Below are positions 15,562-41,156 of a stretch of 64,000 nt of DNA, one piece after another. The position numbers were made by a program, and so were the translations under genes. Under the pieces are notes generated by a model. The model was not told where the DNA came from, made no database searches, and saw nothing but the letters and a program-made list of their open reading frames with translations. Location of the stretch: positions 928,001 through 992,000 of the forward strand of contig CBDESU010000002.1 of NCBI GenBank assembly GCA_965242695.1, written 5' to 3'. Each line of letters begins with the position of its first letter. Position 1 is the stretch's first letter. The DNA is from Cenarchaeum sp. Its GTDB lineage: Archaea; Thermoproteota; Nitrososphaeria; Nitrososphaerales; Nitrosopumilaceae.

Positions 15562-15581
15562 CCCCTGCGGGCGGCCGCCCG

Positions 15582-21985: not shown

Positions 21986-22054
21986 GCGGCATCCTGCCGC
22001 CGCGCCAATTAAAGCGCTTGCAACCTTAAAATCGCCGCCCCGCCGCCCCGCGCC

Positions 22055-22738
22055 GTGAAGCGCCCCCTGCCGGCACTTGCCGCCGCGGCCGCCCTGCTCG
22101 CCTTGCCCGCCCTGCTGGCGGGCGGTGCGTCGGCGCACACGACCGTCGCCGTCGGGGAGTACGAGATCGAGGCCGGCTGGGGGACCGAGCCGCCCATCGT
22201 CGGCATACGCAACACGTTCGTCTTCGAGGTGAGCATGCCGGGCGAGCGCGAGGGCGTCAAGACCGGCGTGAGGAACGCGTTCTCGTCCATGGATGCGACG
22301 GCCAGGTTCGGGGGCGCCGAAAAGATGCTCGACGTGAGCGCGGCGCCCGCGCCGGGCCACTACTACTCGAACGTCATCCCGACGCGGACGGGGTCGTACT
22401 CTGTGCAGTTCAGCGGCGAGATCGACGGGACGGCGGTCGACGTCGACGTGGGGGTCGAGGATGTCGAGACGACGGCCGTCCTCGACTTTCCGCCCCGCTC
22501 GGGCGGAGGGGGCGGCGATCCCGGCAGCGACGCGGTCTGGGCCGCGATAAGGCAGCTGCAGGCGGGATCGGGCGGGGACGGGATAGGCGGCGTCGGCGGC
22601 CAGCCGGGGCAGGATCCGGGCGCGCAGCGGCCCGAGCGGGGCGGCGATCCGGCCGCGTACGACTATGCAGTGGTCGCGCTCTCGCTGGCGGCCGCCGGCG
22701 TGGTCCTGTCCGTCGTCTCGATGGTCCGACGGCGGTAG
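22055..22738 (+). CDS. exported protein with N-terminal His and C-terminal TM anchor, divergent from copCD
   Basis: Signal ...ASA-HTT, GWGTEPP motif, terminal TM + RRR. Confidence 0.8.
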   Translation: MKRPLPALAAAAALLALPALLAGGASAHTTVAVGEYEIEAGWGTEPPIVGIRNTFVFEVSMPGEREGVKTGVRNAFSSMDATARFGGAEKMLDVSAAPAPGHYYSNVIPTRTGSYSVQFSGEIDGTAVDVDVGVEDVETTAVLDFPPRSGGGGGDPGSDAVWAAIRQLQAGSGGDGIGGVGGQPGQDPGAQRPERGGDPAAYDYAVVALSLAAAGVVLSVVSMVRRR

Positions 22739-23136
22739 GCAAGAGCCCGCGCCCCGGGCGGCCCGGGGCGGCGTGGCCGGCCAAGAGCCGCGGCCCGTCG
22801 GGCGGGACCGCGCATCCGCGGGGATCCTGGCACGCCGCGAAAAAATGTGAAAGAAACCTGGCCGCGATGCAATGGCGGCACTGCCGCCCCCTCTACGGCC
22901 CCCTTCCCCGGGCATTCGAGGGGAAGGGAGCCTGCCAAAAAGCCCTCGGATTTTTCCGATTTTTGTTTTTAGCGCCACGCGGCCAGCTTGAGGCGGTTTA
23001 CGGCGCAGTCGCCGGATCTGGGACAAAAAGATCGGAGGCTGTAAGCCGAGCAGTCTATCCAGAGTTGGGCCCCCTTTTTTCACATTTAGAAAGAAAAGCA
23101 CGAAAGGCCCCACAGTTCTCGATCAAGACGCCCCAA

Positions 23137-23385: not shown

Positions 23386-24315
23386 CTACGTCGCCAATAG
23401 AGTCGAAGTCGTAGAGCCCAGCTGGGTTGTCAGGGATTGCGAAGATACTTCATATGTATTCGTTGTCGTAATGAGAGTTAATCTCCCTGGGCCGAATGCG
23501 TTGCACCATACACTTGCAGACTCGATCGGATTTGTAGCTGTAAGGGTACACACCTGGGCTTTGACATGGCCGCCTCTTGGATTTGATGAAGCCAAAACGT
23601 GATGCCTCTTGACGGTTTCGACATGTTCAAATTCTAGACAGGTCGAATCCCTCCTCTCTGTTATACGCTTGTCCATGTCTGCGGGATAGGAAAACGACCC
23701 CGTGATTTGCGCCCTGCCATTTGTATACGATGTTAACACGGAATGTGCCAATCCCGACACAAATGACAAGTCGCGGCAATCGTATTGATGCTGATAATGG
23801 TTGTTGTTTCTTCTTACGTCCATGGACGGAGACGCGTGACTTGCCGAAAACGATGTCGGATGGTTGATGGCCGGCATCATGATCATCTGGTCGTAGCTGG
23901 CGACGGAATTGGCCAGGGTTGAACTTGCGTCGTCGCGAGAATCAACAAAGTCGCCCGGCTCGTATGTGGCATGAAGAAGCACAAGCAGTTGATCCGTAGT
24001 CAGGTTTTGGTACTGTGGTGCCGTGCCTCCGAGATTATGTGACGACTGCACTATGGCTTTGGCTATGCCTAGCCTGGTGATCACGTTTTCTAGTGCCTCT
24101 TGGCGCTCCGAATGGCTTTCGCCGTCAAGCTCTCTTTTATAGTCGTGTATGGCGGACTCCAAGGCCGCCAAGTCACCCGTGTGACTGACTGGCCCGACTG
24201 GCCCGGCCGTTGTCCCGCCCGGCACCTGCGCTGTGGACATCCCGATAGGGACGAACAGCAATACCGTCAACACTGCTGCCATGCATGTGGCTGCTTTTGC
24301 AGCTTTTGCTGTCAT
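23386..24315 (-). CDS. secreted precursor, family A copy 1 (putative toxin)
   Basis: TTATATAA 22 nt upstream of ATG; signal peptide; helical pro-region; 4-Cys, Thr/Ser-rich C-domain; lower GC. Confidence 0.75.
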   Translation of the reverse strand: MTAKAAKAATCMAAVLTVLLFVPIGMSTAQVPGGTTAGPVGPVSHTGDLAALESAIHDYKRELDGESHSERQEALENVITRLGIAKAIVQSSHNLGGTAPQYQNLTTDQLLVLLHATYEPGDFVDSRDDASSTLANSVASYDQMIMMPAINHPTSFSASHASPSMDVRRNNNHYQHQYDCRDLSFVSGLAHSVLTSYTNGRAQITGSFSYPADMDKRITERRDSTCLEFEHVETVKRHHVLASSNPRGGHVKAQVCTLTATNPIESASVWCNAFGPGRLTLITTTNTYEVSSQSLTTQLGSTTSTLLAT

Positions 24316-24337: not shown

Positions 24338-24374
24338 TTATATAAGGGGGTCTTGAACGATATGGAGTGCCTAG
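24338..24374 (-). promoter_or_regulatory. CTAGGCACTCC-N18-TTATATAA promoter
   Basis: Motif 24364-24374, TATA 24338-24345. Confidence 0.75.
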
Positions 24375-24502
24375 AGGCGTGAGATCGGCCCACGCCTGCA
24401 CATCCCCGCCTGGACGTGCCCTGTGCCATGACCTGGCGGTTTGCCGCCCCCACCTGCCGTTGATGCGGACGAAACGGCCCTTGGGGCATATGGCAGGCAG
24501 CC

Positions 24503-24731
24503 ACGACGGCCGTCCCCGGCTTTCCGCCCACTCGGCAGCTGGCATCAACGATCCCGGTAGCGACGCGGTCTGGGCCGCGATAAGGCCGCTGCAGGCCGGC
24601 TCGGGCGGAACCCGGGCGCGCAGCTGCCCGAGCGGGGCGGCGATCCTGACGCGTACGGCTACGCCGTGGTCGCATCTCGCTGCCGCGGCCGCCGTGGTCC
24701 TGTCCGTCGCCTCAATGGTCCGACGGCGGTA
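24503..24731 (+). pseudogene. degenerate copy of the 3' end of gene 22055..22738
   Basis: Encodes DPGSDAVWAAIR..VLSVASMVRRR; downstream DNA also parallels 22739-23140. Confidence 0.8.
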
Positions 24732-25130
24732 GGCAAGAGCCCGCGCCCCTGGCCGCCCGGGACGGCAGGGCTGGCCAGAAGCCGCGGCCCGCCGAGCGGG
24801 GCCGCGCATCCTGCGGGATCCTGGCACGCCGCGAAAAATGTGAAAGAAACCTGGCCGCGATGCAATGGCGGCACTGCCGCCCCTTCCGCGGCCCCCACTC
24901 CCCCAGCATTCGGGGGACGGGGGCACCCAAAAAGCCACTGCGGATTTCCCGGTTTTCGTTTTCAGCGTTGCTCAACCGACTTGAGGCGGTTTGTGGCGCA
25001 GGCGGACAGCCGGGCCAAAAAGATCGGAATCTGTAAGCCGAGCGCGCATCCAAAGCTGGGACCCTGCCTCTTTTCCACATCCAGAAAAACAGGCAAAGGC
25101 CGCGGACGGACTTCGATCAGAACACCTTCG

Positions 25131-25355
25131 TCACCGGTACTTTTTTTTGACCAAGTATATGCCAATGGCCAAGGGAACAATACCCGCTAGACTCTCTAGG
25201 ACGGCCAGCACACTCAATTCGCCGGCGAATTCTATGCCCAGGCCCTGCCCCGTAAACAAGTTGTACGCCACAACAAGCGCTGACAATACGTACGCCCAGT
25301 AGAAATAAAACGACCAAGCTATAAGCGCATAGCCTAGCAGCTTTAAGCGGTTCAT
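25131..25355 (-). CDS. small 2-TM partner protein (family A copy 2)
   Basis: Paralog of 23137..23370 (shared TGQGLGIEFAGE, PLAIGI, KKKYR). Confidence 0.75.
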   Translation of the reverse strand: MNRLKLLGYALIAWSFYFYWAYVLSALVVAYNLFTGQGLGIEFAGELSVLAVLESLAGIVPLAIGIYLVKKKYR

Positions 25356-25374
25356 GGCGAAAAAAAGAGCGGAG

Positions 25375-26307
25375 CTACCACGTCACTAATACAGTCGAAG
25401 TCGTAGAGCCCAGCTGGGTTGTCAGGGATTGCGAAGATGCTTCATATGTATTCGTTGTCGTAATGAGAGTTAATCTCCCTGGGCCGAATGCGTTGCACCA
25501 TACACTTGCAGACTCGATCGGATTTGTAGCTGTAAGGGTACACACCTGGGCTTTGACATGGCCGCCTCTTGGATTTGATGAAGCCAAAACGTGATGCCTC
25601 TTGACGGTTTCGACATGTTCAAATTCTAGACAGGTCGAATCCCTCCTCTCTGTTATACGCTTGTCCATGTCTGCGGGATAGGAAAACGACCCCGTGATTT
25701 GCGCCCTGCCATTTGTATACGATGTTAACACGGAATGTGCCAATCCCGACACAAATGACAAGTCGCGGCAATCGTATTGATGCTGATAATGGTTGTTGTT
25801 TCTTCTTACGTCCATGGACGGAGACGCGTGACTTGCCGAAAACGATGTCGGATGGTTGATGGCCGGCATCATGATCATCTGGTCGTAGCTGGCGACGGAA
25901 TTGGCCAGGGTTGAACTTGCGTCGTCGCGAGAATCAACAAAGTCGCCCGGCTCGTATGTGGCATGAAGAAGCACAAGCAGTTGATCCGTAGTCAGGTTTT
26001 GGTACTGTGGTGCCATGCCTCCGAGATTATGTGACGACTGCACTATGGCTTTGGCTATGCCTAGCCTGGTGATCACGTTTTCTAGTGCCTCTTGGCGCTC
26101 CGAATGACTTTCGCCGTCAAGCTCTCTTTTATAGTCGTGTATGGCGGACTCCAAGGCCGCCAAGTCACCCGTGTGACTGACTGGCCCGACTGACCCGGCA
26201 GTTGTCCCGCCAGGCACCTGCGCTGTGGACATCCCGATAGGGACGAACAGCAATACCGTCAACACTGCTGCCATGCATGTGGCTGCTTTTGCAGCTTTTG
26301 CTGTCAT
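25375..26307 (-). CDS. secreted precursor, family A copy 2
   Basis: Near-identical to 23386..24315 except three substitutions and the terminal residues (VLVTW vs LLAT). Confidence 0.75.
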   Translation of the reverse strand: MTAKAAKAATCMAAVLTVLLFVPIGMSTAQVPGGTTAGSVGPVSHTGDLAALESAIHDYKRELDGESHSERQEALENVITRLGIAKAIVQSSHNLGGMAPQYQNLTTDQLLVLLHATYEPGDFVDSRDDASSTLANSVASYDQMIMMPAINHPTSFSASHASPSMDVRRNNNHYQHQYDCRDLSFVSGLAHSVLTSYTNGRAQITGSFSYPADMDKRITERRDSTCLEFEHVETVKRHHVLASSNPRGGHVKAQVCTLTATNPIESASVWCNAFGPGRLTLITTTNTYEASSQSLTTQLGSTTSTVLVTW

Positions 26308-26329
26308 TGCACGGCCATGCATGCGCTCG

Positions 26330-26366
26330 TTATATAAGGGGGTCTTGAACGATATGGAGTGCCTAG
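26330..26366 (-). promoter_or_regulatory. CTAGGCACTCC-N18-TTATATAA promoter
   Basis: Motif 26356-26366, TATA 26330-26337. Confidence 0.75.
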
Positions 26367-26539
26367 AGGCGTGAGATCGGCCCCACGCCTGTACGTCCTC
26401 ATCTGGGCGTGCCGCCGCCTCCTGCTGGGCGTGCCCTGTGTCACAACTGGTGCTTTGACGCTTGACGACTGCCGTTGATGCAGACGAAACGGGCTTTGGG
26501 GCGTGTGGTCGGCCGCCACGACGCCTGCCCCTCTGCTCG

Positions 26540-26805
26540 ACACGACGGCTGTTCTCGGCTTTCCGCCCCGATCGGGCGAATGCGGCGATCCCGGCAGCGA
26601 CGCGGTCTGGGCCGCGATGGGGCAGCTGCAGGTCGGCTCGGGCAGGGTCGGGATAGACGTGATCGGCTGCCAGTCGGGGCAGGACCCGAACATGCGGCAA
26701 CGGCAGACCGAGCGGGGCGGCTATCCGGCCGCGTACGACTATGCCATGGTTGCGCCCTCGCTGGCGGCAACAGATGCAGTCTTGGCCGCAGTCCCAATGG
26801 TTTGA
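26540..26805 (+). pseudogene. third, degenerate copy of the 3' end of gene 22055..22738
   Basis: TTAVLGFPPRSG..DPGSDAVWAA..PAAYDYA matches the intact gene. Confidence 0.8.
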
Positions 26806-26919
26806 AAGCGGTAGACAACCTAGCCCCCATCCTTAGATTTATCCGAATCTCATCCGTTGCCGGCGCGCTCAAACATGAGAGTGCATACGGCACATTTCGG
26901 CGTGGTCGCGGCGGTGGTC

Positions 26920-27426
26920 CTAGGGCCAAGCGAGGACAGGGGGCTTGTAGTCGTAGAACTCTCTGTTGATCCTGTCCAGCTCCGAGGCAGTAAGGTGGTC
27001 TTTTTTGTAGTCTATGATCGCCATCATGACCACCTTGTCGCGCTCGTCGTGGAATGCGATCTCCCTGAGCGTGATCCCCTCGGGATCCACTATCCTGTAG
27101 ATCCTAGTCCCGTTTGGATAGTAGTCGCGATAGGTGGTGCTCTCTGGCGACCAGCCCATGCCGCTGCTGCTGGACCCGTTGTCCAGGTCGTTCGGAAACA
27201 GCACGATCATTTTGCCGTCCCAGTCGGCGCTCATTAGCAGCCCATAGTTGTTGTGCGTCATGTATATGCCAGACTCCCTCATCTCCCAGAACAACCTGTG
27301 AACCGCCCTGTCAAGGTCGTGGTGCGACCCTATGCTCACAATGGGCATGCCGTAGACGACTCCCGCCGCAAAGGAGGCCGCGACGGACAGGGTTGCTAGT
27401 CCTGCCCACAAGATCCTTTGGTCCAT
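26920..27426 (-). CDS. N-terminally anchored partner protein (family B, putative immunity)
   Basis: TM then YGMPIVS..DLDR, FPNDLD, FHDERDK; 17 nt after precursor B1; paralogs at 31435 and 41157. Confidence 0.75.
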   Translation of the reverse strand: MDQRILWAGLATLSVAASFAAGVVYGMPIVSIGSHHDLDRAVHRLFWEMRESGIYMTHNNYGLLMSADWDGKMIVLFPNDLDNGSSSSGMGWSPESTTYRDYYPNGTRIYRIVDPEGITLREIAFHDERDKVVMMAIIDYKKDHLTASELDRINREFYDYKPPVLAWP

Positions 27427-27443
27427 CGTTGTACTCCGTGCGT

Positions 27444-28511
27444 TTACGGGGTAAATGAATAGCTTGTAAAAGTGGTATAAACAGTAGACTCAGCCCGTGC
27501 ATTCTGGTTTCTCAAGTGCCCGTAATCGTTCACATACCCGTCGTCGTCATACACGGTCACCATGTTGCTTGTGTGGCCAGGGCCGGTGATCTGCGCCCTT
27601 GCCACCACTCTGTCGTAGTCAACCCCGTAGTTGGTGAGCCTAACAAAGATGGACGGATCTTGTATGTGGTATCGCTTTGAGCGGATCTGTTGGGATTCTA
27701 TCCCGCTGCCTACATTTGGTTCAAAGTCAAAGCAGCTCGGCACCGATGCCTCGCATGGCTCATAGACTAGGTGTATGCTTGCTATGTGGAACCCATAAGT
27801 CATGACGGGCGTCACCCGCCCAAACCTGTCTGTCATGGAGTCAATGCCCCAATCACAGCCGGGCGTAAGCCTACAGTATTCGTCCAGCCTTATTTTGCTC
27901 CAAAACTCTCCGTCCTCGATGTCCACCTCTTCGGGCACCCCGCCCGCATCTATCATGGCATTCACCGGCGCAACCAGCCGCGGCACAAGGCGCAGCTTGT
28001 CCTCGCCCACCAGGTCCGCCAGCCTCTGGTCGATGGACCCGGTGCTGTCGGGCACTTCGTATCTTTCGAACGCCCACCTGTAGAACTTTTCCTGCTGGGG
28101 AGTGTGGTCGGCCGTCCCGCCCAAGACGTTCTTCTTTGCGGCCAGGGCGGCTATCTCGTGGGCGTTGACATACCGCCCGATCTCGGTCTCGGCGTTGTAC
28201 GCTGCTATGTACTCCTTGCCCCTCTGCTGGTTCCACACGCTCCCCCCCGCAAGGTGCTCTACATACGACTTGAAATTCTCGTGCCGGATCGCGTCCTGGG
28301 GGGATGCCGCCCACGTGCGGTTGTCTATGCGATCGATGTTTGTCAGGGGGGACGTGCTGTTGGGGGGCGCAGTGGCCAACGGGGGCGGTACGCGGGCCCC
28401 GCCTTCGCCCGCCGACGTCACGCCGTCTACGGGATGCGCACCCGTGCTGGCCACCGTGACAATCAGCACCGACGCCACCAGGAGCGGCAGCATTGCCGCT
28501 AGTCCATGCAT
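27444..28511 (-). CDS. secreted precursor, family B copy 1
   Basis: TTATATAA 28532-28539; signal peptide; paralog of 30355..31419 in inverted orientation. Confidence 0.78.
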   Translation of the reverse strand: MHGLAAMLPLLVASVLIVTVASTGAHPVDGVTSAGEGGARVPPPLATAPPNSTSPLTNIDRIDNRTWAASPQDAIRHENFKSYVEHLAGGSVWNQQRGKEYIAAYNAETEIGRYVNAHEIAALAAKKNVLGGTADHTPQQEKFYRWAFERYEVPDSTGSIDQRLADLVGEDKLRLVPRLVAPVNAMIDAGGVPEEVDIEDGEFWSKIRLDEYCRLTPGCDWGIDSMTDRFGRVTPVMTYGFHIASIHLVYEPCEASVPSCFDFEPNVGSGIESQQIRSKRYHIQDPSIFVRLTNYGVDYDRVVARAQITGPGHTSNMVTVYDDDGYVNDYGHLRNQNARAESTVYTTFTSYSFTP

Positions 28512-28894
28512 GACAGGCAGATGCCGCCCCGTTATATAACTAGGCGGTCACAGATCTGGCGTGTCTTTCGATGCGGCTAGCGCTGCGAGGCACGCCCTAG
28601 GGGGCTTGAATCGTACTACATCCAGCATGAGGGGTGGGGCGTCCGTCAGCTGGCCGATCCTGCCTAGGGTTGTCTGCACCGGGCCAGTGCTTGGACATGC
28701 TGGTTACGCGTGAGCCGCGGCCGGCGCCGGCCTGTACGACCTGCCGCATTGTGCTATTTTCTGCCCGGATTGGGACCTGTTGACACTCTCATGTGTGCGG
28801 CCTAGTTGCCTGCACGCAAGAGGTGCCTGCACGCTGCCCTGCCTGTAGCCCCGCCACCCTTCACCAAACAGCCCTCGTCATAACCGAGTGCGGG

Positions 28895-29833
28895 CTATGG
28901 AGCCTGCCTAGCATGTGCGCGCGCCCGCCACGCCCGAACGGCGAGCCTGCGCGCGGCAAGCACGGACGCCACGGGCACTCCGGCGTACAGCGCGGCGTTG
29001 ATCAGGATCACGGCCAGGCCGTGCGAGACCATCTCGCCGTCCGAGTCGATCTCTGCGGCTTCCAGGAGGGACAGGGACGCTAGCATCGGCGCAATGCCGG
29101 CCCTGACGGCCTCTTTTAGCGCGGGACTCTGCCTCTCTAGGTCGGCCACGGCGGGCGAGAACGCATAGTACACCGCATTGAACGACTCTATGAACGACGC
29201 GCCGGCCGGCGTTCCCATGACGGCCCCGTCCCTCACCTCCCTGAGGATCTGCACCTGGCCGGCCATCTCGGTGCCGTATGCCGCCGTGGCGATCAGGCAT
29301 CCGCCCCCTCCCTGGCCGCCTCCGGGGACGGCGGCATCCGCCCCGTCGCCGTCATCCGGAATGTCCTGCGCATCTTCTGCTTGTTCCGCCCAGTCGCCCC
29401 CTCCGCCGCCGATCGTCAGGCCGAGGCTGGCCGTCTCTAGGGGTATGGGCTGGAACAGTATGCCCTTGACCCCCATCTGGACGGTGTGGGGCCCGTCGGA
29501 CTCGAACTCGATCGGGATGCTCACCGACCCCGACGACGTGTGCGTGAGCGGGATGGTCTTGACCGGGGCGCCCCCCTCGTCGGCCGACACGGTGATCTCG
29601 TAGTCTATGTGCACCTGTATGCGCTCCGTACTGGGGTTGACAAAGTCGATCTTCATCTTGGCCGGCTCGCCGGCCGAGACCGCATCCGGCTCTAGGGCAA
29701 AGTCGATGTCGAGGGTTCCCTTGTCGGTCGGGACGACCTGCGCGTTTGCCTGCGCGTACGCGGGGACTGCCGCGAGCGGGACCGCAAGGAGCGCGGCCAA
29801 GAGTAGCGCAACCTTCACGGCGTTTTTCTGCAA
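28895..29833 (-). CDS. CFI-box-CTERM surface protein
   Basis: GGGCLIATAAYG..LREVRD..FNAVYYAFSP; signal peptide. Confidence 0.88.
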   Translation of the reverse strand: MQKNAVKVALLLAALLAVPLAAVPAYAQANAQVVPTDKGTLDIDFALEPDAVSAGEPAKMKIDFVNPSTERIQVHIDYEITVSADEGGAPVKTIPLTHTSSGSVSIPIEFESDGPHTVQMGVKGILFQPIPLETASLGLTIGGGGGDWAEQAEDAQDIPDDGDGADAAVPGGGQGGGGCLIATAAYGTEMAGQVQILREVRDGAVMGTPAGASFIESFNAVYYAFSPAVADLERQSPALKEAVRAGIAPMLASLSLLEAAEIDSDGEMVSHGLAVILINAALYAGVPVASVLAARRLAVRAWRARAHARQAP

Positions 29834-30296
29834 CCGCCCGTATTAAACGCTGGCCGGGCCCTAAGAGGGCCCCGCCGGAGCGCGCCGCCCGGCGTGGTTG
29901 GGACGCCCCGGTCAGCCGTCAAGAGGAAGGCTGTCGCGTGCCCGCCGCAGCGCGCCGCCCGTGCGACGCAGGACGGGGCGCGGCCCGATGCGGCCGATCT
30001 GCGGCCGGCGAACCCCGCCGCTCTGCCAATGTGCATTCCGCAGTAGGGATGGGCAGGAAGGCCAGAGGGGGCCCGGCTCGGCAGGAACTTGCTAGGATAC
30101 GTCCGCCATACGGGGCCGACGTGGGCCGTGTCGTGTACCCTGCGTGTCCGCGCACCACCCCCGGGGCCACCTCCGCGTAGCCTCCGATCAACCGGCAGGC
30201 GCCACCCGGATCGTGATCGTGCCGCCAGACGGCACCCATCTCCCACATGCTCAACACGAGGCACGATCTGGCCCGCCTACGGTATTGTCCGTCCCA

Positions 30297-30333
30297 GTAG
30301 GCACGCCGGACCCGCCGCCGCCTCCTTATATAA
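30297..30333 (+). promoter_or_regulatory. GTAGGCACGCC-N18-TTATATAA promoter (9/11 match)
   Basis: Motif 30297-30307, TATA 30326-30333. Confidence 0.65.
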
Positions 30334-30354
30334 TGGGGCATATCCCACCGAACC

Positions 30355-31419
30355 ATGCACGGACTTACGACGACGGTGCCGCTCTTGGTGGCGTCGGTGC
30401 TGGTCGTAGCTGTGGCAGCCGTGGGCGCGCATCCCGTAGACGGCGTGACGTCGGCGGGCGAAGGCGGGGCCCGCGTACCGCCCCCGTCGGCCACTGCGCC
30501 CCCCAACAGCACGTCCCCCCTGGCAAACATAGATCGCATAGACAACCGCACGTGGGCAGCGTCCCCCCAGGACGCGATCCGGCACGAGAATTTCAAGTCG
30601 TATGTAGAGCACCTTGCGGGGGGGAGCGTGTGGAACCAGCAGAGGGGCAAGGAGTACATAGCAGCGTACAACGCCGAGACCGAGATCGGGAGGTATGTCA
30701 ACGCCCACGAGATAGCCGCCCTGGCCGCAAAGAAGAACGTCTTGGGCGGGACGGCCGACCACACTCCCCAGCAGGAAAAGTTCTACAGGTGGGCGTTCGA
30801 AAGATACGAAGTGCCCGACAGCACCGGGTCCATCGACCAGAGGCTGGCGGACCTGGTGGGCGAGGACAAGCTGAGCCTTGTGCCGCGGCTGGCGGCACCG
30901 GTGAATGCCATGATAGATGCGGGCGGGGTGCCCGAAGAGGTGAACGTAGAAGACCTGGACTTTTGGACAAAAACGAGATGGGCCGAGTACTGCAACCTCA
31001 CGCCTGGCTGCGACTGGGATGTCGAGTCCATGACGGACAGGTCTAGCGGCGTGACGCCTGTCACGACTTACGGGCGCCACATAGCCACCATACATCTTAC
31101 GTATGAACCATGCTACGCAACGATACCGACTTGCTGTGACTTTGAGCGGAACATAGGCAGCGGAATAAAATCCCTCGTGTTTCCATCAAGATACCACATA
31201 CAAGACCCGCTTATCCATGTCACGCTTACCAACTATGGCCAGGACTACGACCACGTAGTGGCAACTGCGCAGCTCACCGGCCCGGGCCTTACCAGCAACA
31301 CAGTAGTCGTGTACGACGATGACGGGTACGTAAACGGCGAAGGGTACCTGAGAAACCAGAACGCTCGGTCTGAGTCCCATGTCGAGACCACGTTTAGAAG
31401 CTACTCGTACGCTCCATGA
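30355..31419 (+). CDS. secreted precursor, family B copy 2
   Basis: Pro-region almost identical to B1; C-terminal domain after ..PEEV diverged. Confidence 0.78.
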   Translation: MHGLTTTVPLLVASVLVVAVAAVGAHPVDGVTSAGEGGARVPPPSATAPPNSTSPLANIDRIDNRTWAASPQDAIRHENFKSYVEHLAGGSVWNQQRGKEYIAAYNAETEIGRYVNAHEIAALAAKKNVLGGTADHTPQQEKFYRWAFERYEVPDSTGSIDQRLADLVGEDKLSLVPRLAAPVNAMIDAGGVPEEVNVEDLDFWTKTRWAEYCNLTPGCDWDVESMTDRSSGVTPVTTYGRHIATIHLTYEPCYATIPTCCDFERNIGSGIKSLVFPSRYHIQDPLIHVTLTNYGQDYDHVVATAQLTGPGLTSNTVVVYDDDGYVNGEGYLRNQNARSESHVETTFRSYSYAP

Positions 31420-31434
31420 ACCCGGGTGTGGCCC

Positions 31435-32334
31435 ATGGACAAGAGGATTCTGTGGGCAGGAACAGTTGCTTTGGCATCCTCGGCAGCCTTTGTAGCGGGA
31501 GTCGTCTACGGCATGCCCATTGTGAGCGTAGAATCGCACTACGATTTGGACAGGACGGTTCACAGGCTGTTCTGGGAGATGAGGGAGTCCGACACGTACC
31601 TCACGCACCGCAACTACATGCTGCTAATGAGCGCCGACAGGGGCGGCGAGATGATCGCGCTGTATCCGAACGACCTAGACAACGGGTCTAGCAGTAGCGG
31701 CATGGGCTGGTCGCCAGAGAGCACATCCTATCGTGACTACTATCCAAACGGGACCAGGATCTACAGGGTGGTGGATTCCGAGGGGATCACGCTCAGGGAG
31801 ATCGCATTCCACGACGAGCGCGACAAGGTGGTCATGATGGCGATCATAGACTACAAAAAAGACTACCTTACTGCCTCGGAGCGGGACAGGATCAACAAGG
31901 AGTTCTATCCCGACGATCCGCACGACGAAGATCTGTCGGCGCGCGCCGGCCGCGCCGATGCCGAGGCGGCCCTGCACGGTAGCGCCTACGAGGTTGCCGC
32001 CCTGTCCGCAAAGCGGGATGCCCTGAGCGGGGAGGGCGCCCTCACCCCACAACGGGAAAAGTTCTACCAGTGGGCGTTTGAAAGGTACTCTGTGCCCAAC
32101 AGTACCGAGTCGATCGATCGGCGGCTGGTAGAGATTGTGGGCGATGCCGGCCCGCGCCAAGTGGAGCTGCTGGTGGGACGGGTAAACTCGGACGTCGACG
32201 CCGGCTTTGTTCCCGAGGGGGCGGACACTGCGGACGGGGAATTTTGGAGCAAGGTGAGGCTTTCCGCGCACTGCGACGCGACGCCGGGCTGCGACCTAGA
32301 TGTCGAGGCCATGGTCGACAGATCCCCGCCGTGA
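31435..32334 (+). CDS. family B partner protein fused to an extra copy of the family B pro-domain
   Basis: First about 158 aa match 26920..27426; remainder (TPQREKFYQWAFERY..DGEFWSK..TPGCD) matches the precursor interior. Confidence 0.75.
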   Translation: MDKRILWAGTVALASSAAFVAGVVYGMPIVSVESHYDLDRTVHRLFWEMRESDTYLTHRNYMLLMSADRGGEMIALYPNDLDNGSSSSGMGWSPESTSYRDYYPNGTRIYRVVDSEGITLREIAFHDERDKVVMMAIIDYKKDYLTASERDRINKEFYPDDPHDEDLSARAGRADAEAALHGSAYEVAALSAKRDALSGEGALTPQREKFYQWAFERYSVPNSTESIDRRLVEIVGDAGPRQVELLVGRVNSDVDAGFVPEGADTADGEFWSKVRLSAHCDATPGCDLDVEAMVDRSPP

Positions 32335-32407
32335 CCTGCGGGGCGGGCGGCTCGATCTATGACGACTACGGCGGCGGCCGGCCGGGAGGATATCCGGACG
32401 CCCAGCC

Positions 32408-33292
32408 CTAGCTCCCTGCCACATTCTCTGCGTCCTCTTTCTGCCCCGCCATGCCGCCATCCTCCGCCCGCCCTCCGGCCCAGCCGCAGCCGTCCTGCCC
32501 ACCAAGCCGCTCCATGGCCCGGCCGTACTTTTCAAAATAGCGGTCGGGATCCGCCTCCGTCTCGCCCTGCGGGCCGACCCCATACTCTTCGAGCTTCTGC
32601 ATGACCGTGCCGTATTCTGCGGCCAGCTCGCCCGCGCGCCGGCTGTCGTTGGCCGCGCCCATCTCCAGCGCTATCTCTGCGGACTCGACGAGCAGGGCGT
32701 TTCGGGCGCATTCGTACGCGTTTTCCGGCGTAATAAAGTCGATTGCCATTGCGACGTAGGCATCCCTCTGCTCCCGGCCCATGCTCTGGTATTCGTCGCC
32801 CTGCTTGAGCAGCTCTACGTACGCGCCCCCGCCTGCCACATCGATATCGCAGGCGCAGCCGTCCTCGCCGGACGGGCCGGGCGGCTCTGTGTCCGTACCT
32901 ACTGCTGCGGGACTCACCTTGCCCCGCCACGGGGGATCTTCGACGATGTGGCGGATTGGAACATGGCATGTCTGGCCTGAATACGATGTGCCTAAAACAT
33001 TCCAGCATGACAGCCCCGACACGCCGTTGCATTCTCTAGCACTGACATTCCAAAGTCCCCCCTTGCCCCTGCACCATTCGTCTATGCCAACAGAAACGCA
33101 GTTTTGCGGTTGTTGGAATGGCACCATGTCACAAAACGTGACTAGCCGCTCTGACGTCACATAGTAATGCTCGTTGTTTCCCCATGTCTTGTACAAATAC
33201 ACATGTGCCACAAAAATCGACGCTATGATTGCGACTGTTACCGCGATCCCGACTTTTTTTCTAAAAAGAAAATGGGAGTTAGAAGTTGACAT
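32408..33292 (-). CDS. TM-anchored Cys-rich partner of precursor C1, fused to a GC-richer helical domain
   Basis: Overlaps the C1 stop; TM near the N-terminus; 6 Cys; GC rises below about 32940. Confidence 0.65.
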   Translation of the reverse strand: MSTSNSHFLFRKKVGIAVTVAIIASIFVAHVYLYKTWGNNEHYYVTSERLVTFCDMVPFQQPQNCVSVGIDEWCRGKGGLWNVSARECNGVSGLSCWNVLGTSYSGQTCHVPIRHIVEDPPWRGKVSPAAVGTDTEPPGPSGEDGCACDIDVAGGGAYVELLKQGDEYQSMGREQRDAYVAMAIDFITPENAYECARNALLVESAEIALEMGAANDSRRAGELAAEYGTVMQKLEEYGVGPQGETEADPDRYFEKYGRAMERLGGQDGCGWAGGRAEDGGMAGQKEDAENVAGS

Positions 33293-34151
33293 GCCACCAC
33301 GCAACGTACGCACCCCACCAATATGCTGGCCAGCCATATGCTAGAATTTCTGGATTCGGCTCGGGACTTTGTGTGTTGTGCCTCCAATAACTTCCGGTTT
33401 GGAAGACTACCTCCTGGCTTCTCATTTCACCGCTATCGCAATGGTACGCAGTTGTAGTTTTTGCAAAGTCGTTCCCATAGTTTCCTGATGCGTACAGCGG
33501 AACCTGGTGGTAACCGTTGTTTATCAAGTATCTTTCTGCAGCAAATTCAGTAGCGAACCATCGCTTTGGGATCACCTCGGGAACTGGATGAGGGTGTTGA
33601 AAACCACCATTACATGCTATGGCAGATGACCCTGATCCGTGTCTTACTTCCTGTAGCCCGTCTGCTAATATTTTCTGCACGAAAATTGGCGATACGGTCG
33701 TATATTCGTACAGTACCGGCATGATGTCGTTTACGCGTCCTGTTGATCCGGCACCAATGCCAAACAAGGCGCTGAATTTTCCCCCCTCAAGTTCTTGCAC
33801 CGCCCTCTTGAGCTCAAGATTATCCGCCTCCAGTTCATTTGTTTGGGCCACATGGCCAAATGTTGCGCTTATAATGTCATTGTTATGAACGGCAAACTCT
33901 AACGCTATCTCCATGTCTAGATCCGACACGGAACTGTCCCTCATAGCGTTGACGGTGTCGAATGAAATGCTTTTGTTCTTGTTATATACGACATACTCTT
34001 CCATGACCGCAAAGGAGTGTTCGATGTCGTCAAGCGCGTACGGTACGTGCGCCTCGGAGTGGCTGCCTTGTGCATGCGCGATGCTGATCCCATGAGGGAT
34101 CAGCAACGCAGTCACAATCGCTGCAAGCAACATGTCCGTTTTCTTGTTCAT
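33279..34151 (-). CDS. secreted precursor, family C copy 1 (Trp-rich C-terminus)
   Basis: Signal peptide ..AHA-Q; ends PEPNPEILAYGWPAYWWGAYVAWWH; low GC; paralog at 38654. Confidence 0.8.
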   Translation of the reverse strand: MNKKTDMLLAAIVTALLIPHGISIAHAQGSHSEAHVPYALDDIEHSFAVMEEYVVYNKNKSISFDTVNAMRDSSVSDLDMEIALEFAVHNNDIISATFGHVAQTNELEADNLELKRAVQELEGGKFSALFGIGAGSTGRVNDIMPVLYEYTTVSPIFVQKILADGLQEVRHGSGSSAIACNGGFQHPHPVPEVIPKRWFATEFAAERYLINNGYHQVPLYASGNYGNDFAKTTTAYHCDSGEMRSQEVVFQTGSYWRHNTQSPEPNPEILAYGWPAYWWGAYVAWWHVNF

Positions 34152-34172
34152 TGCAGGCGCCACGCCCCCTCA

Positions 34173-34209
34173 TTATATAAGCAAGCCCTGCCAAATTTGG
34201 AGTGCCTAG
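34173..34209 (-). promoter_or_regulatory. CTAGGCACTCC-N18-TTATATAA promoter
   Basis: Motif 34199-34209, TATA 34173-34180; extra CTAGGCGTCA copies near 34270 and 34312. Confidence 0.75.
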
Positions 34210-34665
34210 CGTAGATTCTGAACCCGTGCACCAGAGTGCCTCCGCACACTCTGTCATGAATGCCAAATTTGACGCCTAGTAATGTGATCGCAGTGAACCG
34301 ATTCTGCCGCCTGACGCCTAGGTCGGGCCAAATCGGGCCGGATGATGCCTATTGGCTCATTTTTTTGGCTCAGTAGGCAGTAGGGGCGCGCTTAGCAAGC
34401 GAAGATCAAGGGCGGTGGCGCGGCGATGCGGACGGTTCCGCTTCGCGCGGAGAGGCCTGGCACGGGCGCCATGCCGCGTTGCAAGCCTGGCGGCAGGGGT
34501 GGATGCGAGGACTCTGATAACCTAGTGCCGGCGGCACTTGATCGTGTGCAGCACGGCACAGCCGGATTCTGGGAGGCGGCCGGCAAGGGCAGGTCCCGAC
34601 GGCGACCGTGGCACGTAGACACAGCTCCCATCTTTTATATTGTAGATACGGCGGCTAGGGAAAAG

Positions 34666-35127
34666 ATGAGAACGACTGCCGTCATACTAACCTTGCTGCT
34701 AGCCGCATCTGCATCGGCCAACGCGATTTTCATCCTCTCTGACTACCTCGGAGATTCCGAGCAGGGTGATTATACATCTGCCCCTGTCTATGATGCCATG
34801 TTCCGCGGCATGCCTATGGGTGTCCAAGACAGACCCGCAGGAGGCGAGACGGTCACGTTTCAGATTCTCAAGGTCATAGATCAACATCCTGCTGTCAAGG
34901 GGTTGGATCTCGACAACCGCGACTTGATCGACGTGGTTTCCGACGACCGCCACCCGCATTGCTTTCTTGACTTTGAGCTGGGCACGACTTACACCGTGTA
35001 TTCCCGGCTTGAGGGCGGGCTTCTCGTGACAGACGCATGCTGGGGAACGCACCCCTACCGCAATATGGGATCAACTACTAGAGATCACTCGATATACCCG
35101 CTACCCTGGGATGCGCCCCTGCCTTGA
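34666..35127 (+). CDS. exported protein with TIMP/NTR-like OB-fold pattern
   Basis: Signal peptide; FRG, TFQILK, C.LDFELGTTYTVY...DAC.GT pattern; TTTTATA upstream. Confidence 0.5.
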   Translation: MRTTAVILTLLLAASASANAIFILSDYLGDSEQGDYTSAPVYDAMFRGMPMGVQDRPAGGETVTFQILKVIDQHPAVKGLDLDNRDLIDVVSDDRHPHCFLDFELGTTYTVYSRLEGGLLVTDACWGTHPYRNMGSTTRDHSIYPLPWDAPLP

Positions 35128-35533
35128 ATGTGGCGATGCACTAGCCGCGCCCCGCCGGTCAGGCATGCCTTGGGGCTGCCACCCATGGCCACGCCGAAGA
35201 ATTTTTGCGATGCGGGGCTGCGCGGCTCGCGGTTGACATGTCACGGTGGCCCGCAGCCGTCGGCCGCCGTCTGGGCTGCCCTTTCAGGCCTTGACGGGGC
35301 GAGCAGGACTCCACTGGCCCTGCGCGACTATGGCCCGCCCCTCGTGCCCCTACCGGCAGCTAGGCGCCCCGCCCCTCCGCGATCTTTCTCGAGCCGGACC
35401 GCACCACGCCGACAGGGTGCATTCTCCACGGCATCTGCCCTTGCTACGAGCATGCCTGCAAGTGCCAACAGCGGGCCCGCACGCCGTCCAATCCCCGCCA
35501 ATGATTTTATTGCCCGCCCAATGGGCGCGGGGC

Positions 35534-36844
35534 GTGCAGTTCAGGCTCAAGATCGTCGCCATGGTGGGCGTCCAGGTCACCATGATCATAGCGAGCTTTG
35601 TCATTATAGTGCACTTTGAGTCTCAAACCGCGATGGCCGGCAACGTGGTCAACGTGGCGGGCAAGAACAGGGCCTTGACGATCACGGTGCAGGCCGAAAT
35701 TCACAAGGCGCTGCTGTACGAGGGCGGCGGCCCGGGCGGCGGCAGCTACGGCGGAGTCGCGGCGGCGCTCGACGACTTGGAGGACAACATACTGTTCCTG
35801 AGGAATGGCGGCTCGAGGGACGGCATCTCGATTGCCCCCCTGGCGGACAGGTTCGGGGCCGACTGGGCCGCACTGCATGACAAGTTCGCGGAATACCGCG
35901 ACACGGTCGCATCCCTCGACCCGTCCGGCGCCGAGCCGGCGGGCCTCGTGATCGGCGGCTTGGACGAGACGAGCGCCGAGCTGGTGGCGCTGTCCGACGC
36001 GCTTACGGGCAAGCTGGGGAGGGACGTCGACGATCTGTCCATGAACCTGGTGAGGCTGCAGACCGCGCTCGGACTTGGCAACGTCGTCCTGCACCTGCTG
36101 ATGATCGCGTTCATCCTTAGGACGTTCAGCCGCCACGCAGATCAGATGGTGAGGGCCGGGAGGCTGGCAGCCGTGGGCGAGCTGGCATCCACCGTGGCCC
36201 ACGACATGAAGAACCCCCTCGGGACGATCGCAAACGCGGCCGCCGCCGTCAGGAAAAACGCGGGCGGGGGCGGAAAGGGATCCACGGCGACGGTGGGGGC
36301 GGCCCTGGACCTGATAGACCGCTCCGTGATGCGCATGTCGCACCAGATCGACGGCGTGCTCAGCCACGCCCGTGCGGTTCCCCTGGCAGTGGAGGCCGCG
36401 TCCGTCCGCGGCATGCTGGAAGGCGCGCTGTACTCGCTTCAGGTGCCCGGCAACGTGTCGGTGTCCCTGCCGGACGGCGATGCCAGCATAGCCTGCGACA
36501 GCGCCAAGATGGAGTTTGTCTTTTCCAACATCCTGCTCAACGCCATCCAGGCGATGGGCGAGGGCGGGGGGAGCATAGGGGTGCGGCTGGAGCCTGGCGG
36601 GGACGGCGGGATCGCCCTGCACTTCGCCAACTCGGGGCCGCCCATACGGGAGGCGGACATAGGCATGGTGTTCGAGCCCCTCTTCACGACGAAGATGCGG
36701 GGGACCGGCCTGGGCCTGACCAGCTGCAGAAATATAGTGGGGCAGCACGGCGGGAGCATGAGCGCCCGCAACGGCCCGGTCACGTTCACGGTGAGGCTCC
36801 CCGGCGGGAAGCGGGACGGCGGCAACGGCGGGGATGGCGAATGA
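35534..36844 (+). CDS. sensor histidine kinase with NarX/PilJ-like sensor domain
   Basis: VNVAGKNR P-box-like motif, 2 TM, AHDMKNPL, NILLNAIQA, FEPLFTTK..GTGLGL. Confidence 0.9.
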   Translation: MQFRLKIVAMVGVQVTMIIASFVIIVHFESQTAMAGNVVNVAGKNRALTITVQAEIHKALLYEGGGPGGGSYGGVAAALDDLEDNILFLRNGGSRDGISIAPLADRFGADWAALHDKFAEYRDTVASLDPSGAEPAGLVIGGLDETSAELVALSDALTGKLGRDVDDLSMNLVRLQTALGLGNVVLHLLMIAFILRTFSRHADQMVRAGRLAAVGELASTVAHDMKNPLGTIANAAAAVRKNAGGGGKGSTATVGAALDLIDRSVMRMSHQIDGVLSHARAVPLAVEAASVRGMLEGALYSLQVPGNVSVSLPDGDASIACDSAKMEFVFSNILLNAIQAMGEGGGSIGVRLEPGGDGGIALHFANSGPPIREADIGMVFEPLFTTKMRGTGLGLTSCRNIVGQHGGSMSARNGPVTFTVRLPGGKRDGGNGGDGE

Positions 36845-37209
36845 CGGACCCCAAGAAGATACTGGTGGTCGACGACGACCAGGACTTTCGGGAGTCCATC
36901 CAGATGATCCTGATCGAGGAGGGACACGAGACGCTGGCGGCCGCGGACGGAGTGGAGGCGGTGCGCCTGTACGAAGAGGCCAAGCCGGATCTCGTGCTGC
37001 TCGACCACCGGATGCCGGGCATAGACGGCCACGAGACCCTTACCCGGATCATCAAGGTCGATCCCGATGCGAGGGTGATCATCACCTCCGCCTACGCCAT
37101 CGACGAGAACGCGCGCCGCGCCGCGGAGGACAAATCCCTCAGGTCGCTGCTAGGCAAGCCCATCGCCCTGGAGGACCTGAGGGACGCGATCGAGCGCCAC
37201 GCCAGATGA
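36841..37209 (+). CDS. single-domain response regulator
   Basis: ILVVDDD, PDLVLLD..MPGIDG, KP; ATGA-coupled to the kinase. Confidence 0.93.
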   Translation: MTDPKKILVVDDDQDFRESIQMILIEEGHETLAAADGVEAVRLYEEAKPDLVLLDHRMPGIDGHETLTRIIKVDPDARVIITSAYAIDENARRAAEDKSLRSLLGKPIALEDLRDAIERHAR

Positions 37210-38061
37210 CGTTCCCCGCAGGGCGTCGAGGCTCCCCGAAACGGCGCGCAGCCCGCCCTTGTAGTGGGACACGGCCTCTGCCAGGAACTTCCCGTACCAC
37301 TCCGACAGCTCCCCGTCCGAGCGCATCGCGTCCAGCACACTGCGCCGCCTGTCGCCTGCGTCCCGCGCGCCCTCTGGCGTGCGACACAGCAGGAACGTGT
37401 AGTACCAGTACGACAGCTGCTCAGCCAGCTCGGACTCGGAGATCGACTCGTACCACCTGTGGTACCTTGCGCCCAGGAACAGCATTATTTCGTGCAGGGG
37501 GGCGCTGTCGCCGCCGCCCTGCCCGTCGAGCAGTATTCCCTTGGCGAGGACCTTTAGGGGGGTGTATGCGCTATCGCCCAGTGCCCCCTTGAGGGTGTCC
37601 ATTCTCCCGAACACGCGAGGGACGATGCCGGCGTACGCCGCCGCCACGCGATCCATCTCGCCGCCCGACGGGGACATTACGTCCATGCAGTACAGCATGC
37701 CGTGGATCGAGAGGCGGTACCTGCTGTGCCCCTCGTCGCCCTCTCTTACTACCAGGCCCGTGTCGAGCATCCCGCCGGTGTGCCTTCTTGCGTCGTGCCT
37801 CCCTGCGAACAGCCGGCGGTATTCTTTTTCCTTGGCCCTGACCTGCGTCATGCCCTTGCTTCGGAGCGTAATCTTGGCCGCTTCCCATGTGGTGCAGGCG
37901 CCGTTTACAAACAGGGCATGCAGTATGTCATGCATACTCTGCTGGTGTATTGTCCTGGGACCCGCATAGCCCCCGTACAGCCGGTGCGCTGCCGGCCGCG
38001 TGCAGTGCTTGTACGACGACAGGTTGCCGTATATGGCGCCAGTGCCTGGTGGATCGGACAC
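37150..38061 (-). CDS. hypothetical protein, possible winged-helix DNA-binding protein
   Basis: ILHAL..NG.CTTWE.AK and GLV...YRLSIHG wing-like pattern. Confidence 0.6.
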   Translation of the reverse strand: MSDPPGTGAIYGNLSSYKHCTRPAAHRLYGGYAGPRTIHQQSMHDILHALFVNGACTTWEAAKITLRSKGMTQVRAKEKEYRRLFAGRHDARRHTGGMLDTGLVVREGDEGHSRYRLSIHGMLYCMDVMSPSGGEMDRVAAAYAGIVPRVFGRMDTLKGALGDSAYTPLKVLAKGILLDGQGGGDSAPLHEIMLFLGARYHRWYESISESELAEQLSYWYYTFLLCRTPEGARDAGDRRRSVLDAMRSDGELSEWYGKFLAEAVSHYKGGLRAVSGSLDALRGTSSGVALDRVPQVLQGDGLA

Positions 38062-38401
38062 GCGTGCCGTGGCCGCCCCCGACTATATCATTGTTGTGCT
38101 AGGGGCGGCGTGCCATTCACGCCCGCCGGTAGGATTGGCCCCGTCACGCCCGCCGCGCAATATCGCGCCTCGCACTCCATGCGTCCTCCGGCCCTGACCT
38201 GGCGGGGGAGACGCCGTCCCCGCCGCCGCACACGCCTCGCACTACGCGCCGCCGCACAGCAGGCAGCGCGCCGCACTGATGCCCTCCGGATGCTGCCCCG
38301 CCGCATCGCTTGTGCGCTCGGCAGGCATCCGACGCGATCTGCGTGCGGCCCGGAATTTGACTCTAGATGCTGGCATGTTGGTGTGGCACCCCCTGTCCTG
38401 T

Positions 38402-38594
38402 CGCCTAGGCCGGCTGGCAGCCTGCCCTCCCGGCGGAACCCGCCTAGCCCTCTCGCTCTACGGGGGCCTCGCCAACGCCCCTGTCCGCCTAGGCCGGCTG
38501 GCAGCCTGCCCTCCCGGCGGAACCCGCCTAGCCCTCTCGCTCTACGGGGGCCTCGCCAACGCCCCTGTCCGCCTAGGCCGGCTGGCAGCCTGCC
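38402..38594. repeat. 84-bp tandem repeat, about 2.3 copies
   Basis: CCTAGGCCGGCTGGCAGCCTGCCC starts at 38404, 38488, 38572. Confidence 0.9.
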
Positions 38595-38596
38595 CC

Positions 38597-38633
38597 CTAG
38601 GCACTCCGTACCCGTGTGCGCCTGGCTATATAA
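38597..38633 (+). promoter_or_regulatory. CTAGGCACTCC-N18-CTATATAA promoter
   Basis: Motif 38597-38607, TATA 38626-38633. Confidence 0.75.
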
Positions 38634-40607: not shown

Positions 40608-41156
40608 GCCGCGCACGGGGGGGGGGGGGGGGCAAGGCGAGGGGCACGCGCCGCAGGCCTATCCGGCGGCTCACACGGGCCCGCCTTGAGCCGCGCTCCT
40701 GCTGATCTGCACCGCGCACCGCCGCCGGGTGCCACGGTACCCCAAAAGCTGCGTGCCGCCGCGAGCGGGGTGTGAGATATTGGGATGCCGAAACACCCTG
40801 CTTGCTTCAACTTGTTTATATAACGCAGGAGTCCTGCTCAACGTGATGGCTGCGCCGGCACCCGTCCCGCTAGCGCCGGCCGCGCCTAACGCATCCGCCG
40901 CTTTCGGCTGTCCATGCGGCGGGCGGTGTGACCGTTGCGGACGCGGGATGGGGCGCCGCCGCAGGCGCGCGGCTCCTGCACATCCTGTAGCGGCCACCGC
41001 GGGGATATTCCAACCCTCTTCGGGACCGAGCGGTGCGGCGGTGCACGGCGACACCAGGCATGCGGGCGGCGGCGGGAGCCTGCGCATCCCCGTAGACGAT
41101 CACGGGCCGCCGCCGCCTTTTTGCTCACAGGCCATTAGCACGCCCGGTGATCTCCG

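Follow-up and report, generated by a model that had tools for sequence, protein, structure and literature searches.

The locus described here, a group of secreted-protein genes that share one promoter element, is best viewed against several kinds of known system. In archaea, activators of the Lrp family, such as Ptr2 of Methanocaldococcus jannaschii, use a conserved element that lies upstream of the transcription factor B recognition element (BRE) and TATA box, at a fixed distance and in several promoters, and such sites are dyad-symmetric, for a dimer. In bacteria, the MarR/LysR-type layout consists of a divergently encoded, autoregulated winged-helix regulator. Two-component systems with receiver-only response regulators are also known in archaea. 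Bidirectional archaeal promoters, built as BRE-TATA-BRE, were described in P. furiosus (PMC6640164) and in T. kodakarensis and Haloferax volcanii (bioRxiv 10.1101/2020.01.31.928960). According to the accessible portions of these papers, the divergent start pairs of P. furiosus are 49-50 bp apart, with in vitro proof, and most such divergent transcripts are regarded as non-functional (PMC6640164), while the divergent transcription start site (TSS) pairs that share one TATA in T. kodakarensis are 52 bp apart (bioRxiv 10.1101/2020.01.31.928960). The stretch analyzed is a 64,000-nucleotide part of the genome of Cenarchaeum sp. (G000; assembly GCA_965242695.1, contig CBDESU010000002.1, here contig C2, positions 928,001 to 992,000), called the window below, with positions counted from its first letter. 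Within it, six genes of three families (A1 and A2, B1 and B2, C1 and C2) are preceded by a short motif at a constant distance from a TATA box.

The exact 11-mer CTAGGCACTCC is found on the minus strand at A1 (24364..24374), A2 (26356..26366) and C1 (34199..34209) and on the plus strand at C2 (38597..38607). Two variants complete the set, AAAGACACGCC at B1 (28558..28568, minus strand) and GTAGGCACGCC at B2 (30297..30307, plus strand). Four exact copies in the window compare with 0.02 expected, and none of 100 shuffles reached four. At all six sites the spacer between the motif and an 8-mer TATA is exactly 18 nucleotides (nt); the TATA is the perfect palindrome TTATATAA at five sites and is replaced by CTATATAA at C2. 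The TATA boxes are located at 24338..24345 (A1), 26330-26337 (A2), 28532-28539 (B1), 30326-30333 (B2), 34173-34180 (C1) and 38626-38633 (C2), and the ATG codons at 24315, 26307, 28511, 30355, 34151 and 38654 follow after 22, 22, 20, 21, 21 and 20 nt, respectively. The initial annotation had proposed this motif at N18 before the TATA of six genes, with the ATG 20-22 nt past the TATA; all coordinates and both variants were confirmed, and the geometry fits leaderless mRNAs. The flanks of the TATA are also conserved among the sites, being C-rich before it and CG, TG or CA after it, and neither flank mirrors the other.

The complement of the motif core, GG(A/C)GTGCC, contains a GTG on the opposite strand, 21 nt from the TATA (at A1, for example, 24367-24369 on the plus strand). 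The distances between this mirror GTG and the ATG are 50, 50, 51, 51, 52 and 52 bp at the six sites, as measured between start codons and not between mapped TSSs. The meaning of the mirror codon is seen in relatives. In seven loci, open reading frames (ORFs) of 267-299 amino acids (aa), homologous to the 303-aa protein encoded at window 37150-38061, have their start precisely at the motif complement, so that the mirror codon is the start codon of this protein, a candidate regulator, in those loci. A relaxed motif-TATA match abuts the 5' end of the gene in 12 of the 30 loci retrieved for the 303-aa protein. Across genera, the relatives of this gene have the leaderless layout TATA-N~18-GGN(A/G)TGCC, in which swaps of ATG for GTG read as GGCAT for GGCAC, and the start codon is followed by a Pro codon. 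A distal copy in the related genome G017 reads MPFGHEKDGNLQKS on its mirror side, which resembles the N-terminus of the regulator, MP...YGNLMSYK. Taken on sequence grounds, the most fitting reading of the motif is a mirror-image start site, belonging to a two-way archaeal promoter with a palindromic TATA as its base. The N18 spacing, from which the initial annotation had deduced an activator, can be explained without one by a mirror GTG or ATG placed 21 nt from the palindromic TATA, which is the start of the regulator in relatives.

As in the published bidirectional promoters, judged from the text available, one symmetric TATA is located midway between starts that are 49-52 bp apart (PMC6640164; bioRxiv 10.1101/2020.01.31.928960). 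The differences are that here both sides are leaderless, that an 8-11-mer is strictly conserved on the mirror side, and that the whole unit is multiplied before secreted-protein genes and conserved across genera. No second BRE in a symmetric position is evident at the window sites.

The explanation that we favor, with a rough probability of 0.5, is that a two-way cassette was copied from the front of the regulator gene and that its retained core is the operator of this regulator. Each site would be one copy of a compact bidirectional leaderless promoter cassette on the palindromic TATA TTATATAA. On one face, a secreted-protein gene would have its ATG at 20-22 nt from the TATA, and on the other the mirror GTG would be placed at 21 nt. 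In the layout taken as ancestral, of which relatives still give examples, the mirror GTG or ATG is the start codon of a conserved winged-helix-like protein of ~290 aa. The cassette, consisting of the 5' end of the regulator gene, the TATA, the start and the signal peptide, would have been copied along with the diversifying secreted-protein genes; the six window copies would have lost the regulator ORF, whilst the initiation site of 8-11 nt would have been kept by purifying selection. A candidate reason for this retention is that the site serves as the operator of the winged-helix protein. The regulator would then sit on its own start and regulate itself; at the copies it would be placed some 41-48 nt ahead of the start of the secreted-protein gene, which it may control as well. 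The six genes would be the output of the neighboring two-component system, with the receiver predicted to dock on the C-terminal domain of the regulator.

Such an arrangement is similar to the MarR/LysR layout in that regulator and target share a short control region and the proposed operator overlaps the start of the regulator while it is located upstream of the target. It differs from that layout in the use of the archaeal basal machinery with one shared TATA, and in the presence of operator copies at genes that are no longer next to the regulator. The 303-aa regulator also differs from the MarR/LysR type, as it is without a Pfam family and has a large extra C-terminal domain that is predicted to dock the receiver.

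The composite of motif, spacer and TATA is specific to the six promoters. In the whole genome (3,887,671 bases, 67-68% GC) CTAGGCACTCC occurs four times, always in the window. When two mismatches are allowed and the spacing is ignored, the 11-mer shows no enrichment (19 occurrences, with 18.4 expected), and therefore the signal is the exact core together with the spacing. The degenerate core AG[AG]CAC[GT]CC has 129 occurrences in the genome, and none but the six in the window are followed by a TATA at the right offset. TTATATAA itself is found at no more than 17 genome sites, seven of them in the window. In a profile scan of the genome, scores of 40.5-66 bits were obtained for the six sites, and the highest score elsewhere was 10 bits. 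Since the profile was trained on 16 non-redundant sites that include the six scored ones (three of 19 were omitted as near-duplicates: L029, L016 and L027), the informative part is that nothing else scores. The motif is not frequent genome-wide without spacing bias, and by both the pattern and the profile scans the composite is present only at the six window sites.

Two candidates were considered and not counted as members. At contig C2:784603 (minus strand) GGCACGCC is followed by a 17-nt spacer, TTATATCG, 20 nt and the ATG of a 241-aa non-secreted ORF. This near-miss has the flank CCGATCTC in common with the A1 and A2 promoters and may be a distant member or a chance match. The other candidate is the seventh TTATATAA of the window, at 40816-40823, where GAAACACC stands at the motif position, the profile score is -2.2 bits and the downstream frame looks non-coding. 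In the surrounding 40790-40845 it can also be seen that CGCAGG follows the TATA, as in some relatives, and that a GTG is located 19 nt downstream. Another TTATATAA, at window 53029 (contig C2:981029), belongs to a repeat copy in a region of low GC (0.49-0.54, window ~52000-56000). This repeat has four genome copies, the others being at contig C1:1619008, C1:2013845 and C2:877426, with 98 nt around TTATATAA identical, and it is probably an insertion sequence.

The composite is conserved in other genomes of the family, where it was first seen at loci that had been retrieved by protein homology and not via the motif. In G004 the orthologue of A (68% identical) is preceded by the exact 11-mer at N18 from TTATATAA, and the letters of the spacer differ. 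When the A promoters of G000 and G004 are aligned, the identical blocks are TCTAGGCACTCCA, AGACCCCCTTATATAA and GCCGTGCAATGACAGC, and identity between the blocks is 2/9 and 7/14. B-like genes of G002 have GAGGCACGCC-N18-TTATATAA, and in G003, at a locus of 41% GC, a neighbor gene has GAGGCACTCC-N18-TTATATAA. A scan of 151 family genomes with GGCACKCC-N18-TTATATAA gave 18 sites in eight genomes of four genera, and none with the reversed control. The genes behind these 18 sites belong to at least eight protein families, either homologous to the window genes or unrelated to them. In the relatives the gene starts, ATG or GTG, are located 20-27 nt past the TATA, and the signal peptides behind the sites are alike, with nearly invariant Pro and Ala. 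The sites are clustered, for example five in 16 kb in G002 and four in 6 kb in G080. G017 has four near-identical copies of GGCATACC-GCAA(G/A)TCAATATCAATTT-TAATATAA, at contig C1:108916, 392487, 663857 and 888727 of that genome, and the copy that was examined heads a B-like secreted gene (MTTKNAKTVLFA...). That the motif is kept in orthologous promoters of other genomes while the spacers have diverged indicates, at the level of sequence, that it is under purifying selection.

The same data bear on how the six copies arose. The initial annotation had excluded simple duplication because the spacers differ. They do differ, yet the promoters have the whole 5' module in common, from the motif and the TATA to the context of the start and a signal peptide in which Pro and Ala are conserved, and therefore they are homologous but old copies of one cassette. 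One could go further and see in the motif a non-functional relic, the first bases of the regulator gene, duplicated and then homogenized by gene conversion between neighboring copies. All six sites are within 15 kb, A1 and A2 are a recent duplicate, G017 carries its four near-identical copies, and one copy keeps recognizable remnants of the regulator N-terminus, all as expected of a relic. The spacers of A, B1, B2, C1 and C2, however, differ almost completely while the core is kept, and orthologous promoters across genomes and genera, with a protein identity of 28-68%, keep the core too; conversion cannot act between genomes. We consider this explanation very unlikely.

A more serious alternative is that the motif is only the divergent initiation site of a bidirectional promoter, a +1 purine or start codon with its context, and that no factor is bound. 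Mirror transcripts at C1 and C2 would then enter the kinase-receiver operon and the winged-helix gene, and those at A1, A2, B1 and B2 would give short or antisense RNAs or micro-ORFs. The 50-52 bp geometry is the published spacing. Composite sites with a pyrimidine at position 5 number 46 in 23 of the 151 genomes (one control match), and those with a purine are found in none of the 151 (two control matches), so that the other strand always reads ATG or GTG; the CA[C/T] triplet is intact even where position 1, 2 or 7 has changed. In both G000 and G002, the two sites that flank the kinase and regulator genes aim their mirror side into these regulatory genes (in the window, the mirror GTG of C1 at 34202, plus strand, faces the kinase operon and that of C2 at 38604, minus strand, faces the 303-aa gene), and in G003 the mirror GTG opens a 126-aa ORF. 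A bare initiation site does not account for the flanking GG and CC, which are kept at the copies though a start codon or +1 purine does not need them. The mirror ORFs at the six window sites are of 17, 20, 25, 39, 50 and 121 aa, the 121-aa ORF is not conserved, and those of A1 and A2 are separated by a frameshift after eight codons, so no peptide is conserved. In addition, conservation across genera would not be expected if, as in most of the published cases, the divergent transcripts were by-products in the form of non-functional antisense RNA (PMC6640164). We regard an initiation site that binds no factor as doubtful, and as less probable than an operator retained from the regulator gene.

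The candidate regulator is part of a compact cassette between C1 and C2. In the window, C1 is directed leftward, its promoter being located at 34.2 kb; next come three genes directed rightward, for a small secreted protein, the kinase and the receiver; then the 303-aa gene, directed leftward; and finally C2, directed rightward from its promoter at 38.6 kb. The sensor histidine kinase (35246..36844, plus strand) matches HisKA (1.8e-7) and HATPase_c (2.1e-16), and the receiver-only response regulator of 122 aa (36841..37209, plus strand) matches Response_reg (1.3e-24). The conserved 303-aa protein, with a winged-helix-like N-terminal domain, is encoded at 37150..38061 on the minus strand. Its own promoter, read by eye at 38083..38114 (minus strand), consists of GGCACGCC at 38107-38114, N16, TGATATAG at 38083-38090, N21 and the GTG at 38061. 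A tandem repeat of 84 bp in 2.4 copies, 99% identical (38397..38595), stops 1 nt short of the C2 motif. It is located within the 0.5 kb that separate the C2 cassette from the 303-aa gene and that any mirror transcript would have to cross.

Homologues of the 303-aa protein are present in 46 of the 151 family genomes, and the kinase and receiver flank the homologue in 30 of the 30 loci retrieved. The five best relatives outside G000 are in G051, G002, G080, G017 and G125; the first four genomes bear the motif, and in all four the homologue adjoins motif sites, so that together with G000 there are five genomes in which motif sites adjoin the cassette. The gene is found in six of the eight genomes that match the strict pattern and in 19 of the 23 that match the relaxed one, against 46 of 151 overall, where kin are not independent and many relaxed matches are the gene's own start. 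The triad, with a GGCATGCC-type start context, is also found in small AT-rich relatives (46/151 genomes). In one of these, at locus L067, GGAGTGCC is located between the TATA and the ATG of the regulator gene, which is an operator-like place. As in other archaeal two-component systems, a HisKA/HATPase_c kinase is combined with a stand-alone receiver; unlike in the known ones, there is a fixed third partner, the winged-helix-like protein, which is convergently encoded in all 30 loci and is a predicted receiver binder.

The 303-aa protein has no Pfam or NCBIfam match even at E <= 1. A model structure was predicted in AlphaFold from an alignment (A3) of 27 of the 30 regulator loci (L054, L058 and L063 were omitted as near-duplicates), with a predicted local distance difference test (pLDDT) value of 86.2 and a predicted template modeling (pTM) score of 0.84. 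In a VIA-align comparison, residues ~15-135 resemble winged helices of the MarR, ArsR, PadR and Csa3 type, with root-mean-square deviations of 1.4-4.5 Å over 68-102 residues and Z values of 5.2-6.7, which are below 8, a range that can reflect a common arrangement only; the top 50 rows were mostly winged helix-turn-helix regulators. The complex of the 303-aa protein with the receiver, for which 22 of the 34 receiver matches were used (alignment A8), was predicted with an interaction prediction score from aligned errors (ipSAE) of 0.72, compared with 0.00 for the best control; at least 82% of the contacts were common to runs and the pLDDT of the partners was at least 80. The mark of 0.72 is reached by 116 of 157 solved complexes and by 2 of 215 mismatched pairs, counts that are only rough as own alignments were used. 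The complex model supports binding between the regulator and the receiver, with a predicted interface at residues 167-182 and 227-231 of the regulator and residues 14-33 of the receiver. We tentatively suggest, at clearly less than even probability, a more specific scheme for these archaea of the ammonia-oxidizing type, in which the receiver docks on a winged-helix protein that binds GGN(A/G)TGCC at the mirror starts of bidirectional leaderless promoters, represses itself and activates the fast-diversifying secreted proteins, all of which would have one cassette of promoter and signal peptide in common.

The identity of the factor was seen differently in the initial annotation, which placed an Lrp-type activator on the motif and united the six genes in one regulon. 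One regulon is plausible under one factor, while the candidate for that factor is now the neighboring winged-helix protein of the two-component cassette and not an Lrp-type protein. We judge it unlikely that the motif is an upstream site at which an activator acting in trans, Lrp/Ptr2-like or of another type, recruits TBP and TFB, and that the mirror start codon is coincidental. Archaeal activators do act just upstream of the BRE/TATA region. Like the Lrp/Ptr2 sites, the window element is located upstream of BRE/TATA at a fixed N18 in six promoters; the motif is also still present in G003 and G004, two genomes in which searches returned no winged-helix gene, and 11 AsnC-type domains are present elsewhere in the genome. 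None of these 11 AsnC_trans_reg matches falls in contig C2:928001-992000, and there is no Lrp gene in the island; a gene at a distance from it may still act in trans. Unlike the Lrp/Ptr2 sites, the element is short and GC-rich, has no dyad and coincides with the mirror start codon. A coincidence would need to cover the 21-nt mirror spacing, the variation that is restricted to ATG and GTG, and the regulator ORF starts in seven loci.

Several points weigh against an operator function of the retained core. The core GGCACTCC differs from its complement GGAGTGCC at four of eight positions and so has no dyad, which is unusual for the operator of a dimeric winged-helix protein, and a second half-site at a constant distance from GGCACTCC was not found at the six window sites. 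An operator of two half-sites, ATACC-N13-GGTAT, is visible in some regulator promoters of relatives; it was not found at the six window sites and was dropped as a candidate. A position 5 that is always a pyrimidine, next to a free position 6, fits a binding site no better than it fits a start codon or +1 purine. Matches to the strict and relaxed patterns are perfect by construction and give no measure of core conservation, and related genomes are not independent samples. The Z values for the winged helix are low, as noted above, and Foldseek gave no match at E <= 0.001 for the 303-aa model. G003 (99% complete) and G004 (94% complete) have perfect motif sites though a homologue of the regulator was not found there; a search of G001, G003 and G004 with the protein and with a 27-row profile returned no homologue, an empty answer which, made without a positive control, shows little. 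If the regulator gene is truly missing in G003 and G004, the motif is kept there without the regulator. It is because of these two genomes, the lack of a dyad and the variation that fits a start codon that our confidence in the full statement is held at no more than the value given above.

In G003, a fragment resembling the kinase in its N-terminal portion (45%, 88 aa) is found at 1046-1291 of locus L004 (C1:947895-951746), beside a family C homologue. It may represent a decayed cassette.

The six genes behind the sites encode proteins of 290-355 aa, each with a signal peptide. On the minus strand are A1 (23386..24315, 309 aa, without a Pfam or NCBIfam family), A2 (25375..26307, 310 aa, 98% identical to A1), B1 (27444..28511, 355 aa) and C1 (33279..34151, 290 aa), and on the plus strand B2 (30355..31419, 354 aa, 82% identical to B1) and C2 (38654..39553, 299 aa, ~45% identical to C1). 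Families A, B and C gave no Pfam or NCBIfam match, and B2 no usable match in the Atlas. The three families had been described as unrelated, which holds for the mature parts: past the signal peptide no similarity across the families was found by BLAST or hhalign (hhalign probability 0.7-4.2%), and the signal peptides alone were aligned. The protein of C2 has only nine close relatives, 64-98% identical, and the AlphaFold model of family C reached a pLDDT of only 50.7 (12 rows; P0002 omitted, 98% identical).

Other genes of the island encode secreted proteins without the motif. These are a signal-peptide ORF of 312 aa with a C-terminal hydrophobic tail (28895-29833, minus strand), a B-like paralogue with a signal peptide directly behind B2 (31426-32334, plus strand) and the secreted protein of ~150 aa just ahead of the kinase (34666-35127, plus strand). 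A Pfam search at E <= 1 with five other ORFs of the island gave nothing meaningful. The island is adjoined by metal-handling genes, namely one for a 1376-aa protein that joins CopC, CopD and Vgb_lyase/SGL beta-propeller domains (18983-23113, minus strand) and one for a ZnuA-type metal-binding protein (15531-16877, plus strand).

The 16S gene of the genome scores higher with the archaeal than with the bacterial model (1450 and 1086 bits, respectively), and Atlas clusters for a neighboring protein belong to Nitrososphaerota. Relatives in the same family have genomes mostly of 1.1-2 Mb, and the genome studied is probably that of a large, GC-rich member of a Nitrosopumilus-like family; for sponge-associated members of this group a GC content of 47-67% is reported (PMC7848895). 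In the more specific scheme suggested above, the cassette would be multiplied in those genomes of the family that are large, rich in GC and probably host-associated. In the literature searched, main texts as far as accessible and not supplements, we found no description of the triad, of a multiplied cassette of regulator start and signal peptide, or of their linkage. Bidirectional archaeal promoters are already known; the conserved and multiplied cassette, the triad and the physical linkage of both appear to be new.

To our knowledge, almost nothing is known in Nitrososphaerota about gene-specific control of transcription, nor about the targets of the many receiver-only response regulators of archaea. 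The locus offers a sharply defined short DNA element, a candidate binder, a predicted receiver partner and a small set of target genes for secreted proteins, which are of the kind expected to matter for life inside a host. It also suggests how archaea can put a bidirectional promoter to new use in the form of a portable cassette, and it calls for caution, since what looks like a motif upstream of a gene, at a constant spacing, may belong to the opposite side of a promoter that is symmetric. If the proposed control is true, the winged-helix protein and the retained core would be the first pair of cis-element and factor, and the kinase, receiver and regulator the first two-component output pathway, to be defined in Nitrososphaerota.

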